Virus record (IMG/VR): IMGVR_UViG_2541047722_000008
Span: 1-14,654 of that record
Length of the DNA: 14,654 nucleotides
From: a virus
Taxonomy: Duplodnaviria > Heunggongvirae > Uroviricota > Caudoviricetes
Direction: 5' to 3' (one strand)
Below the pieces are notes generated by a model, which did not search any database, had not been told where the DNA came from, and was given only the letters and a program-made list of their open reading frames with translations. Below are positions 1 to 11,719 of the stretch, piece after piece; positions within the stretch are counted from its first letter, which is position 1, and each line of letters starts with the position of its first letter. The translations under genes were made by a program, and so were the position numbers.

Positions 1-1119
1 TCAAATAACCAACTTAACCCATTCCTGACCTCGAGTATCGTTATAGCGATCGGTGGTTGCCTGGACTTTATGTCCTAGTAATGTTTTTGTATCGATACCC
101 TGTGCACGGTACAGCCGTTCTGATAGAGAGCGTTGTTCATGAAATGTTGGCGGAGTTTTTCCTGCTGGTGGAATTATCCCAGCCAGATCCCGTGCTTTGG
201 CAAAGTAGTCGCTCAGGTTGTCTTTACTCATCGGCTTCGGTTGTTTCTGGTGCCGACTATGGATTAGATATGGACTTAATATTCTGTCTCGGCACCCATC
301 AATAACTTCTTTTAACGTTATCCCAATGGCATCACAGCGTAGTGTAAGCGGTAACGCCAGACGCATTCCGGTTTTTCCCTGGGTGATATGCAAGTGTTCG
401 TTCCACACATCTGAAAAACGCATGTGGCAAATGTCATCACGGCGCTGACCAGTAACAATCGCAAGAAGCATTGCGTTACGGATAAAGTGTTTTTCAGGCG
501 TTGCATTGTAAATTTTTTGCCAGTCTTCCATGGTGAGCCTGGCTCTGGTTACTTTAGGGATCGGTTTACGGGTAGCCTCCGGAGGATTCCATCCAGGAGG
601 AACTTCCCCTGCATGCTGTGCTTCTTTATAAATATCAACCCATAATCCACGATTTACTCTCGCTGTGCTGACCATGTCTTTATCCAGCCACTCATCCAGT
701 ATTAATGCAAAGTCTCTTACTTCCAGTTCTTTCAATGGGTGGTTTCCCAGACGGGAAACCAGGTATGCAGCCATTCGGGTTTTTTCTTTGTGAGTTGTAG
801 CTGCAATATCTCCATTTTTCAGTCGCGTGTCCTGTATTTTCAGATATCGATCAACCCATGCCTTTAATCTGATACCCCGACGTTTTGTTGCTGACGGACT
901 TTCATCAATTTTGCGCATGAAATATTCAGCTTCTGCTGCAGCTATTCGCTGATTGGCTGTGGAAGCGATTTTTTCTGCCTTACCTTTGTCTGTTCCGAGT
1001 CCGTGAAATTTTCCAGTCACAGGATTTTTATACTGGTAGTAAACTCTGCCAGTTCTGCGATCAAACTTTTCGTAAAGACCGGCTACGTCAGTGCTGTTTT
1101 TTCGTGGCCTCGGTGACAT
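1..1119 (-). CDS. int: Tyrosine site-specific integrase (lambda Int family)
   Basis: 372-aa ORF, ATG at 1119-1117, stop at 3-1. The C-terminal half carries the tyrosine-recombinase pattern (…GQRRDD…, …HSRHQ…, …LLGHK…, …TDRY). It sits at the prophage end next to an excisionase-like gene. Confidence 0.9.
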   Translation of the reverse strand: MSPRPRKNSTDVAGLYEKFDRRTGRVYYQYKNPVTGKFHGLGTDKGKAEKIASTANQRIAAAEAEYFMRKIDESPSATKRRGIRLKAWVDRYLKIQDTRLKNGDIAATTHKEKTRMAAYLVSRLGNHPLKELEVRDFALILDEWLDKDMVSTARVNRGLWVDIYKEAQHAGEVPPGWNPPEATRKPIPKVTRARLTMEDWQKIYNATPEKHFIRNAMLLAIVTGQRRDDICHMRFSDVWNEHLHITQGKTGMRLALPLTLRCDAIGITLKEVIDGCRDRILSPYLIHSRHQKQPKPMSKDNLSDYFAKARDLAGIIPPAGKTPPTFHEQRSLSERLYRAQGIDTKTLLGHKVQATTDRYNDTRGQEWVKLVI

Positions 1120-4499: not shown

Positions 4500-4557
4500 A
4501 AAAAGGGCGGCAGAGCAGTCACGGAGTAAAACTGATACCGCCAAACGTCACCAGAAA
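4500..4557 (-). ncRNA. dicF: DicF small RNA (ftsZ-targeting sRNA processed from the dicB operon transcript)
   Basis: Minus strand reads TTTCTGGTGACGTTTGGCGGTATCAGTTTTACTCCGTGACTGCTCTGCCGCCCTTTTT, matching the DicF sequence as I recall it, including the 3' GC stem (GGCGG/CCGCC) plus U-run. It lies between the ydfC-like and dicB-like genes as in Qin. Confidence 0.75.
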
Positions 4558-5753: not shown

Positions 5754-6161
5754 TTATTTGTTTGCGCTTCTTTTGCGAGCTTTGAGTAGTTCTTCAAAAA
5801 GTTTGTTGAAATTTTCAACTCGAGCACGCATCTCTGACAACAGGGCCTTTTGCTCTGACTCAGGCAGTGCGTCGAACAGTTGAAGTAACTCTTTTTGATC
5901 TTCTGTCAGAAGGGCTGGCTGATTATCCGGGATCGGTTCGCCTGGTTGTTTATCTTCATCCCCAAAAAGAAGCCAAGTCGGTGAGCACTGAAGCGCTTGG
6001 CTCAGTGCGAATAATCTTTTCCCCGCCGGCTGTGTTTCATCTCTTTCCCATTGAGAAATTGTTACGTGAGCCACTTTGACCAGCTTACCTAATGCGGCCT
6101 GAGACAGTTTTAATTTTTTACGCCTATGTAAGAGGCGAGCACCGAAGGTTTCGTTTTTCAT
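5754..6161 (-). CDS. dicA: DicA-like prophage repressor (XRE-family HTH; no LexA-like peptidase domain)
   Basis: 135 aa with an N-terminal HTH (…LKLSQAALGKLVKVAHVTISQWERDETQP…) and the C-terminal segment …LFALSQALQCSPTWLLFGDEDKQP…MRARVENFNKLFEELLKARKR, closely matching my recollection of E. coli DicA (135 aa). No Ala-Gly/Ser-Lys autocleavage module. Confidence 0.85.
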   Translation of the reverse strand: MKNETFGARLLHRRKKLKLSQAALGKLVKVAHVTISQWERDETQPAGKRLFALSQALQCSPTWLLFGDEDKQPGEPIPDNQPALLTEDQKELLQLFDALPESEQKALLSEMRARVENFNKLFEELLKARKRSANK

Positions 6162-6237: not shown

Positions 6238-6465
6238 ATGTTGAAAATTGATGCTATAGCGTTTTTTGGCAGCAAAACAAAGCTTGCCAATGCCGCAGGA
6301 GTTAGGCTGGCAAGCATTGCTGCATGGGGGGAACTGGTTCCTGAAGGTCGCGCGATGCGCCTGCAAGAGGCATCCGGCGGGGAACTTCAGTACGACCCCA
6401 AAGTTTATGATGAATATCGTAAGGCAAAGCGGGCGGGGCGGTTGAACAATGAAAATCACCCCTGA
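6238..6465 (+). CDS. dicC: DicC/YdaS-family Cro-like regulator
   Basis: 75 aa (MLKIDAIAFFGSKTKLANAAGVRLASIAAWGELVPEGRAMRLQEASGGELQYDPKVY…), divergent from the repressor, strong SD. Matches my recollection of DicC/YdaS-family proteins. Confidence 0.8.
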   Translation: MLKIDAIAFFGSKTKLANAAGVRLASIAAWGELVPEGRAMRLQEASGGELQYDPKVYDEYRKAKRAGRLNNENHP

Positions 6466-7000
6466 ACAGGTTTGTGAGGCTCTGGATGCCTGGGTATGCC
6501 GACCAGGAATGACACAGGAGCAGGCGACGATATTAATCACGGAAGCGTTCTGGGCTCTGGAAGAACGCCCGAACATCGATGTTCAACGTGTCACGTTTGA
6601 TGATGGTGTGGTTGATCAACGGGCGCTGGGCGTTAACCGGGTGAAGATATTCGAACGCTGGAAAGCTATCGACACCAGGGATAAGCGGGAAAAATTCACG
6701 GCGCTGATTCCGGCAATTATGGAGGCTATCCGGATCAGTGATTTCAGGTTGTATTGTGAAATTACTGACGGAAAAAGCATTACGTACATGATCGCCAGGT
6801 TAAACAAAGAATATGGCGATGTGGTGGAGTCCGGACTGCTTTTTGCAGATCCTGCTGTTGTGGAACGTGAGACTGACGAGCTTATAGAAAAAGCTATTGC
6901 TTTCAAGCATGCGTATCGTCAGCAATACCAACATTACTTTGCAGATAAACAAATATCTGTCTGGGGTTCGTATGAGTATCGATGCACTACGATGGGCTAA
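6449..7000 (+). CDS. YdaT-like protein (proposed CII-like regulator / putative toxin of the YdaS-YdaT pair)
   Basis: 183 aa, overlapping the end of dicC by 17 bp. The N-terminus (MKITPEQVCEALDAW…) and its position directly after the Cro-like gene match the YdaT family as I recall it; assignment is by synteny and general resemblance. Confidence 0.6.
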   Translation: MKITPEQVCEALDAWVCRPGMTQEQATILITEAFWALEERPNIDVQRVTFDDGVVDQRALGVNRVKIFERWKAIDTRDKREKFTALIPAIMEAIRISDFRLYCEITDGKSITYMIARLNKEYGDVVESGLLFADPAVVERETDELIEKAIAFKHAYRQQYQHYFADKQISVWGSYEYRCTTMG

Positions 7001-8012
7001 AAAGGTGAAAACCGGCAGTTCATCCAGTAAGTCAGTATTAACCTGGCTTGCTGATATGTGCGGTGCCGATTTGTGTGCATACCCGTCTGTATCTGCACTG
7101 GCAGAAGTAACGGAACTGAACAAAAAGACTGTGCAGGACAGCTTACGACACCTGATGGAGATTGGGTTAATTGTTGATACCGGTGAGAGAAAAGGCCGAA
7201 CAAAGCAGATCGTAGTGTACCGACTTATCGGTGTTGAAGAAAGTGTTACCGAGGCTGAATACACCCAAAAATGGGAGTCTTTAAAGGTGGGTAAAATTGG
7301 TACTGTTAATAAAAACAGTACCGAAAATGGCTATGTTTCAGCACAAAACAGACCCAAAAACGGAACTCTTAGCTGCATGGAAAATAACCAAAGACACCCA
7401 AATTTTCCATCAAAGACACCCAAAAATGGATCACGGAACCCAAAGGAACCCAAAGATCTAAACCCCACACATAACACACGCGAGAGTGCTCCGACCAGTG
7501 AGCAGGAAGTTTTGTCGTTACAGGCAGCACCCCCTGTATTCCTGGATGGCCTGAGCGAACCCATCGGAAAATTTCCGATGACCGATAGCTGGTATCCGTC
7601 ACGGGATTTTCGACGACGGGCTGCGTTGTGGGGGATGGCTTTGCCGGAGACAGAATTTACACCTGCTGAACTTGCCGCCTTCCGGGACTACTGGACAGCG
7701 GAGGGGAAAGTGTTTACGCAGATTCAGTGGGAGCAGAAATTCGCCCGTCACGTAAATCACGTCAGGGCGCAGGTTAAACCAGTCAGCAAGGGGGTAAACC
7801 ATGCAGCAGCACCAGGTGGCACCGCATCACGGGCAGTTCAGGAAATTCGGGCAGCACGTGAGCAGTGGGAACGTGAAAACGGATTTATCAGCGACGGAAA
7901 CGGCCTGGAAGCTGTGGGAGCTCATGGGGGAGGTTTATTCGAACCGCTGGACCCAGAAGAATGGGGCCGCACCTTCGAAGCTCTGGATTGCACAGATTGG
8001 CGCGATGACTGA
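6972..8012 (+). CDS. Replication initiator, O-like: N-terminal winged-helix DNA-binding domain plus C-terminal DnaT-like domain
   Basis: In-frame ATG 6972 (MSIDALRWAKK…) preceded by GGGG. N-terminal HTH (…SVSALAEVTELNKKTVQDSLRHLMEIGLIV…); C-terminal region (…FTPAELAAFRDYWTAEG…) resembles the DnaT C-terminal domain. The ORF has good E. coli-like codon usage up to its stop at 8012, overlapping the next gene by 212 bp. The track's start at 6897 is inside the previous gene. Confidence 0.7.
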   Translation: MSIDALRWAKKVKTGSSSSKSVLTWLADMCGADLCAYPSVSALAEVTELNKKTVQDSLRHLMEIGLIVDTGERKGRTKQIVVYRLIGVEESVTEAEYTQKWESLKVGKIGTVNKNSTENGYVSAQNRPKNGTLSCMENNQRHPNFPSKTPKNGSRNPKEPKDLNPTHNTRESAPTSEQEVLSLQAAPPVFLDGLSEPIGKFPMTDSWYPSRDFRRRAALWGMALPETEFTPAELAAFRDYWTAEGKVFTQIQWEQKFARHVNHVRAQVKPVSKGVNHAAAPGGTASRAVQEIRAAREQWERENGFISDGNGLEAVGAHGGGLFEPLDPEEWGRTFEALDCTDWRDD

Positions 8013-8466
8013 GCAGCAAATCCGACAGGTCTGCCGCCAGTGCATGGACCGCTGCCGGGCGGGTGAAACATGGCCTCCGGACCTGGCTGAGTTTGTGGCA
8101 CTGATTTCGGAAAGCGGAGCCAATCCATTCGGTCTGACGGTGGATGCCGTGATGGAGGAGTACCGTCGCTGGCGCAACGAGTCCTGGCGATACGACGGGA
8201 GCGATAAATACCCGTGGTCTCAGCCTGTGCTGTATCACATTTGCCTCGAGATGCGTTCAAAGGGGATTGAGCGGCAGATGACCGAAGGGGAGTTAAAACG
8301 GCTTGCAGAACGGCAGCTGACGAAATGGGCAAAGCATGTTAGTAACGGCCTGAGCGTTCCGCCAGTCCGGCGACAACTGGCGGCCCCCAAACGTCCTGCG
8401 GGACCAACGCCAATTGAGTTGCTGAAACAGGAATATGAACGCCGGAAAGCGGCTGGGTTTGTCTGA
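7801..8466 (+). CDS. Lambda P-like replication protein (helicase loader family)
   Basis: 221 aa from ATG 7801 (AAGGGGG 6 nt upstream). Segments …PPDLAEFVAL…, …YPWSQPVLYHICLEMR…, …TEGELKRLAERQL… align with lambda P (…PSPGQFVAWC…, …YPWKSNAHYWLVTNLY…, …TDAELRRKAADEL…) as I recall it. An alternative start at ATG 8005 (ATGACTGA overlap with the O stop) would give 153 aa. Confidence 0.6.
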   Translation: MQQHQVAPHHGQFRKFGQHVSSGNVKTDLSATETAWKLWELMGEVYSNRWTQKNGAAPSKLWIAQIGAMTEQQIRQVCRQCMDRCRAGETWPPDLAEFVALISESGANPFGLTVDAVMEEYRRWRNESWRYDGSDKYPWSQPVLYHICLEMRSKGIERQMTEGELKRLAERQLTKWAKHVSNGLSVPPVRRQLAAPKRPAGPTPIELLKQEYERRKAAGFV

Positions 8467-8498: not shown

Positions 8499-9269
8499 AT
8501 GGAGACTGTTTTTGACGCACTGAAAGCGATGGGAAAAGCCACGTCGGTAGAGCTGGCTGCGCGACTTGATATCAGTCGTGAAGAAGTGCTGAACGAGCTG
8601 TGGGAACTGAAAAAGGCTGGCTTCGTTGATAAAAGCGTATACACCTGGCGTGTGGCTGGCGAAGGTGAATCCGGGGTAGCCGAAGAGCAGCCAGCACAAT
8701 CTGAAGCACCGGATGTGCTAACCAGGGAGGTCGAACGAAAAGTTACCGCTGACATGATGATTGAGTTTATCGGTCAGGAGGGTGCTAAAACGAGTGAGGA
8801 ACTGGCGGGTAAGTTCGGTGTCAGCACTCGCAAGGTTGCTTCCACGCTGGCGGTAGTAACCGCAACGGGGCGGCTGGCACGCGTAAACCAGAACGGTAAA
8901 TTTCGCTACTGCATGCCGGGCGAGAATTTACCAGTAAAGCCGAAAGTCGCATCGGTAACGGAAAATGATGGTAAAGCCTTTCCTCAGCCAGCCGGCGTTG
9001 CGTTACCAGTACAGGAAGCTGCAACACAGGAAGATATTAAAACAGAAACTGTGGCGGACATTGTGCAGTCGTTGCCATCGTTCACCGAAACGCGAGCGGA
9101 TGACCTGATTTTACCATCGCTGCATATGGCAAACCGCGAACTGCGTCGGGCGAAAAATCATGTCCAGAAGTGGGAGCGTGTCTGCGCCGCGCTGCGGGAG
9201 TTGAACAAGCATCGGGATATTGTTCGACAGATTACTGATTTTTCCCGCCGTGTTGCATCGGAAAAGTGA
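8499..9269 (+). CDS. DUF1627-like prophage protein (two winged-helix-like repeats)
   Basis: 256 aa, GGGAGG 6 nt before ATG. Starts [41 protein letters not shown]… with a second similar repeat (…[33 protein letters not shown]…). Resembles a conserved family downstream of replication genes in E. coli lambdoid prophages. Confidence 0.65.
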
Positions 9270-9284
9270 TTGCCGGAGGCGCTT

Positions 9285-9689
9285 ATGGCAAAAGTATTTA
9301 CACAAGAAGAGCGGGAAAAAATTAAGGGGCAGATTGTTGAACTTGTACGTCTGAGCGGTCGCGAGACGTTACGGCAACTGGAAGCGAAAACAGGTGCGAC
9401 AAGATATCTGATGAGTGTTCTCGCCAGAGAGCTGGTTGCCAGTGGCGATGTATACAATTCTGGCTACGGGTTATTTCCGTCTGAACAGGCTCGTAAGGAC
9501 TGGCAAAACGCCCGCAAAAAACTATCGAGGGCAAAGGCGAAGAAACCGGTTGTGGTTGCTCCGGACCTTATCTGGTCATTACCAGACGGAGAAATACGCC
9601 GCTACGACAGGCGTCAGAACATGATTTGCCGTGAGTGCCGGGAAAGCGAAGTTATGCAGCGTATACTAACGTTCTATTGGGGAATATAG
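9285..9689 (+). CDS. Hypothetical protein (134 aa)
   Basis: ATG 9285 with GGAGG 5 nt upstream (the track's start at 9270 is a TTG). Contains a CRECRE motif near the C-terminus; no family recognised. Confidence 0.55.
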   Translation: MAKVFTQEEREKIKGQIVELVRLSGRETLRQLEAKTGATRYLMSVLARELVASGDVYNSGYGLFPSEQARKDWQNARKKLSRAKAKKPVVVAPDLIWSLPDGEIRRYDRRQNMICRECRESEVMQRILTFYWGI

Positions 9690-9704
9690 CCACTAAATAA
9701 GGTA

Positions 9705-10016
9705 ATGAACCAAATGAACACGGAAAAAGCGAAAACGCAGCTCAGGATAATGCTTGCCGGTCCGGCTGCGAGTTATACGACACATTCACCAGCCATAAAA
9801 AAGGTTCTTGATGAACTGGAAGCCAAAGACAAGCGCATTGCAGAACTGGAGGCAAGGGAAGTCCAGCTACCGGCTGGCTATGAACTTCGATATGGACACC
9901 CGATAAATGCTGATGAGCGCCATGTCATGATACCTAAGGAAAATGGCAGCTGGATTTATCTGGCTGATTTAGAGCGCGCACTACGTGTTGCTGGCATTCG
10001 CATCAAAGGAGAGTGA
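9705..10016 (+). CDS. Hypothetical protein, possibly ead/Ea22-like (103 aa)
   Basis: Central coiled-coil-like segment (VLDELEAKDKRIAELEAREVQL); closely spaced with its neighbours. Family assignment is tentative. Confidence 0.5.
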   Translation: MNQMNTEKAKTQLRIMLAGPAASYTTHSPAIKKVLDELEAKDKRIAELEAREVQLPAGYELRYGHPINADERHVMIPKENGSWIYLADLERALRVAGIRIKGE

Positions 10017-10017
10017 C

Positions 10018-10374
10018 GTGGAAATAAAACCAGAAGATGAGTTAAGTAATATTGTTTTATTTCCGGTAAAAGAAGATGACCCACGTAATCAGGTTAATTT
10101 TCTTTATGAGCCATCGGAAAGACCATATTGCCATCACGCTTCTGTCCGGGTTGATGAAAAAGAGCGTCAGGTCCGCTGTAAAATCTGCGGTGCAGTTGTG
10201 GAGCCGTTTGACTGGATGCTCTCTGTGGCGAAAAGAGAAACCAGACTGGCAGATGATGTAAGGCTATTGCGTCAGGAGGAACGGGAAAGGCGGAAAAATA
10301 TAGAAAAGCTAATTCAGATTGAGCGTAACGCAAAAGCGCGGATACGCAGAGCGACAAAATCCAGAACTGAATAA
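10018..10374 (+). CDS. Hypothetical zinc-finger protein with basic coiled-coil tail (118 aa)
   Basis: GTG 10018 with AGGAG 6 nt upstream, one nt after the previous stop. Motif C-HH…C-KIC-G (YCHHASVRVDEKERQVRCKICG) and an R/K/E-rich C-terminus. Confidence 0.5.
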   Translation: MEIKPEDELSNIVLFPVKEDDPRNQVNFLYEPSERPYCHHASVRVDEKERQVRCKICGAVVEPFDWMLSVAKRETRLADDVRLLRQEERERRKNIEKLIQIERNAKARIRRATKSRTE

Positions 10375-10469
10375 TTAAATTTAGCACTGTTAAAAATTTA
10401 ATCCTTAACCGGAGGGATTTCTGTACCCTCAGAACATCAGGAGGCCGCCTGAAAGGGCAGTAATGAAAA

Positions 10470-11021
10470 ATGACTGAATTAACAAAAGAGCAATTAATCG
10501 AAGAAGCTAAATTTAAAATAGCGATTGCGAAATGCCACCCTAATTCAGAGATGGCACGGGTAGAGGGTGAGTTATTCAAAATTGCACTGGCATCGCTGGA
10601 AGCGGAGCCTGTTGGTGAATTTTATGAGTATAAGCCGGGCGGCTGGTATCAGCATTCGGCTGGAGATAAAGCGCCAAAGTGGATACAACTCTACGCTGTG
10701 CCGCCAGCGCTCGCAGCACCTGAAGGACTGGTTAAAGCAGTGCGCTTTTATGAACAGGTAAAGCGTGAGAATCCACCAGTCGAAACAGGAGCATGGAAAG
10801 ATGCTGTTGATTGGGTACTCAAAGAGGCCTGCTGTGCTGTCATTCTGGGTAAAGCCGACAATCCATTAGCATCCAGTAACCAAGTTGGCGAATTAACAAT
10901 GTGGGTTAAACGACTGGTCAGTCAACTGAAAAAAGCTAATCCAGACTGCAAATTACCGGAGAAGGCGATGGACTACCTGAAGCGGAACGAACTGATAAGC
11001 GCGGAGGATGTTTTGCGATGA
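10470..11021 (+). CDS. Hypothetical protein (183 aa)
   Basis: Long ORF with E. coli-like codon usage, in the same orientation as its neighbours; weak SD; no motif recognised. Confidence 0.55.
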   Translation: MTELTKEQLIEEAKFKIAIAKCHPNSEMARVEGELFKIALASLEAEPVGEFYEYKPGGWYQHSAGDKAPKWIQLYAVPPALAAPEGLVKAVRFYEQVKRENPPVETGAWKDAVDWVLKEACCAVILGKADNPLASSNQVGELTMWVKRLVSQLKKANPDCKLPEKAMDYLKRNELISAEDVLR

Positions 11022-11134
11022 CCTGGCCTGAAGCATTCACAACGGTAGGAATTGCAATGGCGGTGGCGCTGGTGGTGTATTCGATTTGCCGCTGGGGGGA
11101 AGGTATTAAAAAACGCCCCGCACACAGACGTTGA
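11018..11134 (+). CDS. Small single-pass membrane peptide (38 aa), translationally coupled to the upstream gene
   Basis: ATG 11018 overlaps the upstream stop (ATGA). Peptide MTWPEAFTTVGIAMAVALVVYSICRWGEGIKKRPAHRR: hydrophobic helix plus basic tail. Below the length cut-off of the ORF track. Confidence 0.35.
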   Translation: MTWPEAFTTVGIAMAVALVVYSICRWGEGIKKRPAHRR

Positions 11135-11262
11135 GCGCCTGAGATGTGGGGATAGGGAGTTAGTTAAATAGTTGTACAACAATACCTGATTTTATATTGA
11201 AGCAAGAAATAGGTTGCTACATATTGAATCATGCGTGTGTACGTCAAATATGGGAGGTCATC

Positions 11263-11352
11263 GTGCTGGTTCTGAAATGTGCGCTGGCTATTGCGGCAGT
11301 AATGGCAATTTATTGTCTTGTTATCGTTCTTATGAATCACCTCTCTGATTGA
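11263..11352 (+). CDS. Candidate small hydrophobic peptide (29 aa)
   Basis: GTG 11263 with GGGAGG 5 nt upstream. Peptide (V/M)LVLKCALAIAAVMAIYCLVIVLMNHLSD is almost entirely hydrophobic. Ends at the hok promoter -35. Expression unproven. Confidence 0.25.
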   Translation: MLVLKCALAIAAVMAIYCLVIVLMNHLSD

Positions 11353-11359
11353 TTTTATA

Positions 11360-11388
11360 TTGGCGAGGTGACGTGAGTTAAGTAGAAT
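11360..11388 (+). promoter_or_regulatory. Candidate hok mRNA promoter
   Basis: -35 TTGGCG (11360-11365), 17-bp spacer, -10 TAGAAT (11383-11388). The downstream leader (…GCTTGAGGCTATCTGCC…GGCAGATAGAGAAAAGCCCC…) resembles the folded 5' region of R1 hok mRNA as I recall it. Confidence 0.4.
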
Positions 11389-11449
11389 TGCTGCGGGTGC
11401 TTGAGGCTATCTGCCTCGGGCATGAACACCAACGGCAGATAGAGAAAAG

Positions 11450-11520
11450 CCCCAGTTAACATTACGCGTCCTGCAAGACGCTTAACATTAATCTGAGGCT
11501 CAATCCATGCTGAACACATG
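11450..11520 (-). ncRNA. sok: Candidate Sok antisense RNA (approximate boundaries)
   Basis: Minus-strand promoter-like elements: -35 TTGCCT (11550-11545), 17-bp spacer, -10 TAACCT (11527-11522), antisense to the mok SD/start region as in hok/sok loci. A GCGTC/GACGC hairpin and U-rich stretch lie at ~11440-11480. Ends not determined. Confidence 0.35.
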
Positions 11521-11719
11521 TAGGTTAGCCTCTTACGTGCCGAAAGGCAAGGAGAAGCAGGCTATGAAGCAGCAAAAGGCGATGCTAATCGCCCTGATCG
11601 TCATCTGTTTAACCGTCATAGTGACGGCACTGGTAACGAGGAAAGACCTCTGCGAGGTACGAATCCGAACCGGCCAGACGGAGGTCGCTGTCTTCACAGC
11701 TTACGAACCTGAGGAGTAA
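11507..11719 (+). CDS. mok: Mok (modulator of killing) reading frame: N-terminal extension in frame with hok
   Basis: ATG 11507 with GAGG 8 nt upstream; MLNTCRLASYVPKGKEKQA then reads into hok, as I recall for chromosomal mokC/hokC. Confidence 0.55.
   Translation: MLNTCRLASYVPKGKEKQAMKQQKAMLIALIVICLTVIVTALVTRKDLCEVRIRTGQTEVAVFTAYEPEE
11564..11719 (+). CDS. hok: Hok/Gef-family type I toxin
   Basis: 51 aa MKQQKAMLIALIVICLTVIVTALVTRKDLCEVRIRTGQTEVAVFTAYEPEE: the Hok/Gef signature (TM helix, then TRKDLCEV.IRTGQTEVAVF.AYE). AAGGAG 9 nt upstream. Confidence 0.9.
   Translation: MKQQKAMLIALIVICLTVIVTALVTRKDLCEVRIRTGQTEVAVFTAYEPEE

Follow-up and report, generated by a model that had tools for sequence, protein, structure and literature searches.

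The six open reading frames (ORFs) at positions 8499-11134 (plus strand) of a 14,654-nucleotide (nt) prophage DNA, the whole of which is called the window here (IMG/VR record IMGVR_UViG_2541047722_000008, Caudoviricetes), probably represent independent mosaic cassettes that close with a genuine micropeptide gene, not one system. The window spans the early region of a lambdoid Escherichia prophage of the Rac/Qin type. The six ORFs share one strand and stand, as the initial annotation of this DNA had described, between the replication genes and hok. All six are recurrent E. coli prophage genes, and Pfam or PHROGs already list each of their protein families among the recurrent prophage proteins of unknown function. 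The arrangement of the block is new and the kinds of genes in it are known; only the terminal gene, which encodes a putative membrane micropeptide of canonically 27 amino acids (aa), goes beyond this, as a lead.

Comparison of this slot across related prophages, as had been proposed, showed that its genes vary as cassettes, with mosaic joints at about 8465, 9232-9275, 9677-9990, 10367-10468, 10717, 11097 and 11375. Some part of the block is present in 4624 of the 5426 complete E. coli genomes, and at least 80% of it is covered in only 3 of them, which hold the exact combination. Among the phage records, none covers 80% of the block.

The predicted membrane micropeptide gene

The micropeptide gene occupies 11018-11134 (plus strand), with the canonical 27 codons at 11018-11098 and the former stop codon, now GAA, at 11099-11101. 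In the first eight related loci compared, the ORF stops after 27 codons, with the product MTWPEAFTTVGIAMAVALVVYSICRWG. At this stop, the three closest relatives have GGG-TAA-GG and the window has GGG-GAA-GG, and the window product is extended to 38 aa by an 11-residue basic tail (EGIKKRPAHRR). The 38-aa product with its basic tail is therefore the result of a stop-codon loss (TAA to GAA). The initial annotation had listed a 38-aa transmembrane peptide coupled to the preceding gene by ATGA; the overlap and its Shine-Dalgarno (SD) sequence are real, while the 38 aa are the readthrough form of a 27-aa ORF.

Homologues were retrieved by a codon-degenerate DNA pattern scan and by a search of a representative library. 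The pattern scan returned 131 instances in viral contigs and other loci, 128 of which are 27 aa long, with the window as the sole 38-aa copy. In a protein collection, the exact 38-aa protein (E28) was found on 62 contigs, together with a Q28 variant and a 45-aa E. albertii variant; the micropeptide stop was therefore lost on more than one occasion, with the downstream context the same. The 81-nt micropeptide DNA occurs in 1347 of 5426 complete E. coli genomes (25%), at 1852 places and up to six times per genome, and tblastn placed the micropeptide in 93 phage records. Among species-representative genomes, the stringent pattern was found only in E. coli, S. flexneri and one contig labeled Xanthomonas. 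That contig (NZ_JPLE01000323.1, 431 nt, labeled Xanthomonas pisi) most likely reflects contamination of its assembly. More divergent relatives in the representative library (about 55-70% identity) retain the hydrophobic core, the M-x-W-P-[ED] start and the R-W-G end.

None of the inspected records carries a RefSeq annotation of the micropeptide by the Prokaryotic Genome Annotation Pipeline (PGAP), the 38-aa form included, and a few GenBank records name it 'hypothetical protein' or 'bacteriophage protein'. The gene, 84 nt including the stop, may fall below the length limits of gene callers. The Kyte-Doolittle maximum of the micropeptide is 2.11 (F7-I23). Like the small single-pass membrane proteins and type I toxins KdpF, Ibs and Hok, it consists of a single hydrophobic helix with aromatic and charged flanks in a very short chain that routinely goes unannotated. 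Unlike them, it is prophage-borne, unit-terminal and translationally coupled, with no antisense RNA found and no significant sequence match: its score against the KdpF model TIGR02115 was 14.7 bits, below the cut-off of 26.85.

The coding capacity of the ORF was assessed at codons 17-27, since the retrieval pattern had left those codons unconstrained. Minor alleles there fall on codon positions 1, 2 and 3 in numbers of 7, 5 and 43. Across 45 DNA haplotypes, 27 distinct synonymous codon changes at 20 synonymous sites stand against 23 non-synonymous ones at 61 non-synonymous sites, which gives a ratio near 0.28, and the other two forward frames of the segment contain stops. Conserved length, start and SD were thus found together with in-frame purifying selection, and the 27-aa micropeptide is predicted from these features to be a bona fide protein-coding small gene. 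The strong third-position bias, the constant 27-codon length and the stops in the other forward frames argue against the alternative, unlikely in our view, that the small ORF is no gene and that the 80-nt segment is conserved as a recombination joint, as an upstream element of the hok promoter or as an RNA structure. This alternative draws on the position of the segment at a mosaic joint, often only 21 nt from the hok/sok block, on the missing RefSeq annotation, and on literature searches: neither a full-text search with the micropeptide sequence nor the supplements of the Sakai ribosome profiling (Ribo-seq) paper gave a match. However, the segment lacks a downstream hok in 45 of 130 loci, the divergent relatives preserve the hydrophobic core between their WPE and RWG ends, and a GGAGG-type SD is retained in two upstream coding contexts, a few variant copies excepted.

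In the window, the 183-aa ORF and the micropeptide ORF overlap at ATGA, with GGAGGA 9 nt upstream of the second start. Behind at least six differently built upstream proteins, the micropeptide ORF keeps this ATGA overlap together with, in all but a few cases, an SD of the GGAGG type 7-9 nt before its start. One class of these partners comprises DUF551-type proteins ending in ...PPQEVNQ. A second class ends in ...ISVEDILR and includes the 183-aa protein of the window and architectures of 114, 160, 167, 171 and 198 aa. Further partners are a 131-aa homologue of the zinc-ribbon family (hhalign probability 98.6%), EaA and others. The final codons of the upstream gene hold the micropeptide SD, which comes in two sequence versions, and the constant C-terminal tails of these partners may be SD footprints for the coupled gene. 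With at least six upstream genes to which it is coupled alike, the micropeptide is no particular partner of the 183-aa protein.

On the downstream side, 85 of 130 loci have hok/sok within 900 nt of the micropeptide gene, 57 of them at exactly +21 nt, and GC-rich hairpins of several kinds, each with a T tract behind it, follow the gene in most of the remaining loci. The varied upstream partners, together with hok/sok or a hairpin downstream, thus mark the micropeptide gene as a portable mini-cassette that comes last in its unit. The idea that the ORF is part of the hok mRNA was rejected, because a promoter-like sequence (TTGGCG-17-TAGAAT, 11360-11388) and the sok/hok block both start downstream of it, and because 35% of the loci with the ORF lack hok.

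The Ibs, Ldr and Hok proteins are small hydrophobic toxins whose size range matches that of the micropeptide. This similarity, the single hydrophobic helix and the adjacency of hok/sok in 65% of loci could be taken to indicate a membrane-damaging toxin of the type I toxin-antitoxin style, tied functionally to hok/sok. We consider this quite improbable, since the micropeptide gene, which lacks its own promoter and leader, is coupled by ATGA to an upstream early gene, since more than a third of the loci do without hok, and since stop-loss extensions are tolerated in several lineages. A scan of the window with Rfam identified only sok (11395-11569) and DicF, and no antisense RNA family at 11018-11134, where a novel antisense RNA is possible.

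A second small hydrophobic ORF (11263-11352, plus strand) lies in the insert at 11097-11375. It has a GTG start and the SD GGGAGG and encodes 29 aa, VLVLKCALAIAAVMAIYCLVIVLMNHLSD; it is intact in 8 of 8 haplotypes, with a mild third-position bias (7/5/12). In over 1000 E. coli genomes, the DNA at 11237-11395 stands directly 5' of hokD, with no annotation in any of the matches listed. On the minus strand, consensus matching alone located a promoter-like site at 11352-11381 and a terminator-like hairpin with a T run at 11112-11132, which overlaps the readthrough tail of the 38-aa ORF. Between such a promoter and terminator, an antisense RNA of about 230 nt could run across the 29-aa ORF, in a layout like that of type I toxin-antitoxin pairs.

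Other cassettes of the block and their joints

The gene before the micropeptide (10470-11021, plus strand) encodes a 183-aa recombinant protein of an Ea-type family characterized by the motif '...ALASLEAEPV...' (phrog_660, E 2.5e-73), with separate PHROG matches to its N-terminal, middle and C-terminal parts. Alignment of 44 relatives resolved four modules (about residues 1-50, 51-83, 84-128 and 130-183), each of which is present, absent or replaced independently, and a DNA joint lies inside the gene at about 10717. No Pfam, NCBIfam or PADLOC match was found for the protein, a PDB sequence search gave only spurious or weak matches, and an AF2 model built from the 44-sequence alignment was unusable, with a predicted local distance difference test score (pLDDT) of 55.

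The initial annotation had singled out the 183-aa protein plus membrane peptide as a small effector module. Although the ATGA coupling and the strong SD are real, the peptide is a credible transmembrane helix, and the same slot in relatives holds AbiH and toxin-antitoxin modules, a two-gene effector module of this kind (a toxin, abortive infection or anti-defense system with the peptide as anchor or pore) is very improbable, because at least six upstream genes, unrelated or differently built, show this coupling to the peptide gene and the 183-aa architecture accounts for a minority of them, the recombinant 183-aa protein can lack its C-terminal module, no defense or toxin family in PADLOC, Pfam or NCBIfam matches, and the basic tail is a stop-loss artefact of the window lineage.

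The 183-aa gene has no canonical SD. An AGGAGG lies 26 nt upstream, and between it and the start runs a hairpin-forming linker, part of the 95-nt gap that precedes the ORF. This conserved intergenic linker of about 100 nt (10375-10469, plus strand, with the joint at about 10367-10468) gave 110 high-scoring segment pairs (HSPs; 61 distinct sequences) among 134 loci, 5' of at least six different genes. It begins with an anti-SD/SD stem, and its layout is a TCCT...GAGGG hairpin CCCTC...AGGAGG, then a hairpin CCGCCC-GAAA/GGCA-GGGCGG with a GNRA loop, 6-9 nt and the ATG. In the proposed structure 97% of cells pair; covariation was weak and not significant, and the element is too conserved for the covariation test to be informative. 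The z score for folding is -2.67 in the consensus copy. The window copy is degraded (z -0.52), and its second hairpin is weakened to CCGCCT...GGGCAG.

From its sequence, the linker looks like a portable translation-initiation region with a split SD that is at the same time a recombination joint. Lambdoid phages have mosaic 'boundary sequences', and split ribosome-binding sites occur in T4 genes 25 and 38. Like the boundary sequences, the linker is a short conserved sequence that flanks exchangeable genes, and, as in the split sites of T4, a hairpin between SD and start codon would restore the normal spacing. Unlike in these systems, both the recombination at the joint and the hairpin-dependent initiation are only predicted here, with weak covariation and a weakened hairpin in the window.

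Upstream of the linker lies a gene for a CHCC zinc-ribbon protein of 118 aa (10018-10374, plus strand; phrog_1621, E 7.9e-56). The initial annotation had begun this gene at the first in-frame start, 9985. The actual start is the GTG at 10018, as indicated by the SD AAGGAG, by an ATG at the same position in the homologue of the Shiga toxin (Stx) phage ArgO145 and by PGAP homologues of 357 nt. In 50 sequences from many Enterobacterales genera, the ligands C38, H40, C54 and C57 show no variation and the helix LRxEExxRRxNIEKLIQIERNAKARIR almost none; the family reaches Salmonella, Klebsiella, Kluyvera, Yokenella, Erwinia, Serratia, Pluralibacter and Yersinia. The AF2 model (pLDDT 77) has a small beta ribbon (strands 43-61) followed by a single helix of about 55 residues (63-117). 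The four conserved metal ligands thus fall on a predicted beta ribbon, as in a TFIIB-type zinc ribbon. The score against PF08271 (TFIIB-type) was 21.4 bits, below the gathering cut-off of 29. A Foldseek comparison of the model with the PDB gave nothing below E 0.36, the best hit being the TFIIB N-terminal domain, and a PDB sequence search with the 118-aa protein gave only spurious or weak matches.

The zinc-ribbon gene is the conserved downstream partner of Ea22-like genes: it directly follows an Ea22-like gene in every inspected relative that has one, and the pair is found in L001, L003 and L004. The Ea22-like ORF of the window (9705-10016, plus strand) encodes 103 aa, or 100 aa if translated from a second possible ATG at 9714; in one relative, only the equivalent of that ATG is usable. 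Ea22 proteins consist of an N-terminal domain, a long coiled coil and a C-terminal domain ending in K/R-G-E (PMC7093339, PMC10834534). Of this three-part architecture, the 103-aa ORF has the coiled-coil end and the C-terminal domain finishing in KGE, but neither the N-terminal domain nor the bulk of the coiled coil. Its residues 34-103 share 83% identity over 70 aa with the C-terminus of a 153-aa PGAP 'ead/Ea22-like' protein, and the match to phrog_250 (E 1.1e-17) is confined to residues 35-103. The score against PF13935 (Ead/Ea22-like) was 15.1 bits over residues 29-52 only, below the gathering cut-off of 27. The first 33 residues come from rare DNA (9677-9806 gives about 3 HSPs among the 134 loci), and PGAP labels identical copies of the ORF as N-terminally truncated pseudogenes. 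The ORF is probably a 5'-truncated derivative of a longer Ea22-like gene. In a PDB sequence search, the 103-aa protein gave only spurious or weak matches, and its C-terminal domain had no sequence match to the solved C-terminal domain of lambda Ea22. The prolysogenic role of full-length Ea22 cannot be transferred to this ORF by assumption.

The terminal K-G-E tripeptide, known as the '+GE' motif, is reported for all Ea22 proteins, and its significance was left unexplained (PMC7093339). At the junction of the two genes in the window (10005-10020), the tripeptide codons AAA GGA GAG are the AAGGAG SD, 5 nt before GTG 10018, and a relative that ends in K-G-D still has AAGGAGA. From the nucleotide pattern, the '+GE' motif may be an SD footprint for the coupled downstream gene.

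The Ea22-like gene is preceded by a Ren-family gene (DUF977, 'LygF'; 9285-9689, plus strand) whose 134-aa product is a winged helix with the C-terminal motif ICRECRESEVMQRILTFY. It matches PF06163 (E 2.9e-26, 92.6 bits against a cut-off of 22.1) and, over residues 1-132, phrog_142, 'Ren-like exclusion protein' (E 6.7e-44). In BLASTP against lambda Ren (E 5e-6), the 45% identity is limited to the 20-residue C-terminal ('CRECRE') motif, and the winged-helix part did not align pairwise. Thus, the ORF shares its PHROG and its C-terminal motif with lambda Ren, but it is longer and is preceded by DUF1627. Lambda Ren provides escape from Rex exclusion, and no rexAB-like genes were found in the window. 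A winged-helix fold was assigned to DUF977 earlier (PMC2686095). For the homology of the six ORFs to named ren and ea genes, two assignments are confident, namely the Ren family for the 134-aa ORF and an Ea22-like remnant for the coiled-coil ORF.

The first gene after the replication module (8499-9269, plus strand) encodes a DUF1627 protein of 256 aa, and in relatives it follows P-type or DnaC-type modules. The initial annotation had called a DUF1627-like double winged-helix protein here. This was borne out by a match to the full model (1-155) of PF07789 (E 5.5e-98, 325.5 bits against a gathering cut-off of 28.1) and by two matches of the helix-turn-helix (HTH), winged-helix type at residues 4-46 and 85-135; the match to phrog_630 has E 1.7e-133. 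Its layout is two winged-helix-like domains followed by a C-terminal helical region. A preprint on Pas small RNAs that mentions DUF1627 was set aside, as it concerns small RNAs near lysis genes and not this block.

The description of the block as tightly packed with good SDs holds for the DUF1627 gene (GGGAGGA, 7 nt 5' of the start), the DUF977 gene (GGAGG), the zinc-ribbon gene and the small ORF. It does not hold for the 103-aa ORF, whose SD is weak (AAGG), nor for the 183-aa gene with its distant SD and long gap.

The slot and its prophage setting

The window opens with an integrase gene (1-1119, minus strand), after which come an excisionase-size ORF and an 813-aa exonuclease-domain protein. 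The early-left operon contains the DicF RNA (4505-4556, minus strand; Rfam). A cI-like repressor gene (5754-6161, minus strand) and a cro-like gene (6238-6465) follow, then the genes of a YdaT-family protein (6449-7000), an O-like replication protein (6897-8012) and replication gene P (7801-8466). Behind the block come sok and the Hok coding sequence (11564-11719), and downstream of hok the DUF968, RusA and Q genes. The gene that follows cro takes the cII position and, going by the annotation of relatives, is a homologue of the 'toxin YdaT family'. The YdaT-family gene and the gene of the small RNA DicF fit a Rac/Qin-type prophage.

The initial annotation had placed the block in a nin-like region. 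In lambda, ren stands directly after P, and the nin genes lie further downstream, between ren and Q. Because the block lies directly after P and before a presumed tR2-type boundary, placed here on the basis of established lambda knowledge, and because the equivalents of the nin region are the genes downstream of hok, the block is the equivalent of the lambda P-to-tR2 'ren' slot and not the nin region proper. The position directly 3' of the replication genes is the same in both phages, but lambda has one 96-aa gene there and this prophage has six ORFs.

The view of this position as a variable accessory slot of lambdoid prophages agrees with what relatives carry. In L134 (E. coli MS6198), L001, L003, L004 and L005, other cargo lies between the replication or DUF1627 genes and hokD or DUF968, and the cargo at this slot in relatives includes an AbiH abortive-infection gene, RelE/ParD, Doc with RelE/HTH, an S-adenosylmethionine (SAM) methyltransferase and an HNH endonuclease. 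In the block itself, database scans identified no recognizable defense or toxin gene. In a PADLOC-DB 2.0 scan, five ORFs matched no component and the DUF1627 protein had only weak HTH-type matches (best E 1.4e-5, a CARF-associated HTH), and an NCBIfam scan of the block gave no defense or toxin assignment.

As in the exo-xis/ea region of lambda and Stx phages, the block has an Ea22-type coiled-coil end, C-terminal domain and terminal K-G-E. Phage ArgO145 keeps Ea22-like, zinc-ribbon, Ea-type (183-aa-type) and micropeptide genes together in its early-left operon, beside a convergent toxin-antitoxin pair. Unlike in the ea region, these genes are in the early-right operon here. The same cargo therefore moves between both early operons.

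Proposed behavior of the cassettes and its meaning

We propose that the block is a string of independent early-right accessory cassettes in the P-to-hok ('ren') slot. Following the lambda paradigm, these would be delayed-early genes that are transcribed from pR upon induction or infection. Each cassette would supply its own ribosome-binding site, often within the last codons of the preceding gene, and cassettes would be swapped between phages by recombination at short conserved joints, namely the end of the replication module, the linker at 10367-10468, the micropeptide module and hok/sok. The DUF1627 protein and the Ren homologue presumably bind DNA, the latter perhaps with a Ren-like role, and the Ea22-like and zinc-ribbon pair may act together. 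At the end of the string, the 27-aa single-pass micropeptide would be translationally coupled through ATGA and GGAGG to whichever gene precedes it. Because its N-terminal flank is acidic and its C-terminal flank basic, the micropeptide is predicted to insert in the membrane N-out/C-in; the added basic tail of the 38-aa form is compatible with this and would be cytoplasmic.

Several points weigh against the reading of independent cassettes with a genuine terminal gene. The codon-degenerate retrieval biases part of the micropeptide ORF toward a coding interpretation. The Sakai Ribo-seq supplements lack the micropeptide, and prophage early operons are repressed in such cultures. Independence of the cassettes leaves room for pairwise functional links, for example between the Ea22-like and zinc-ribbon genes. 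Because the structure prediction of the 183-aa protein was so poor, that protein may also conceal an enzymatic or toxin fold.

More tentatively, and at somewhat less than even odds in our estimate, the 27-aa ORF (M-T-W-P-E-A-F...Y-S-I-C-R-W-G) would be a widespread membrane micropeptide of Escherichia and Shigella lambdoid phages that annotation pipelines have missed, a portable unit-terminal gene with an embedded SD whose product acts at the inner membrane early after induction. It could, for example, modulate a host membrane protein, exclude superinfecting phage or prime the cell for the hok module. If so, the stop-loss variants (E28, Q28 and the 45-aa form of E. albertii) would be natural C-terminal extensions of a functional protein.

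Taken as a whole, the block is one more arrangement of recurrent E. coli prophage early genes and no candidate defense or effector system. The '+GE' motif of Ea22 and the fixed tails of the upstream partners may be no more than SD footprints for coupled downstream genes. The mobility of the Ea-type gene set between early-left and early-right operons matters for the inference of function from position. Found in roughly one in four complete E. coli genomes, the 27-aa membrane ORF offers small-protein studies a clean candidate in the prophages of enterohemorrhagic and Shiga toxin-producing E. coli (EHEC/STEC).

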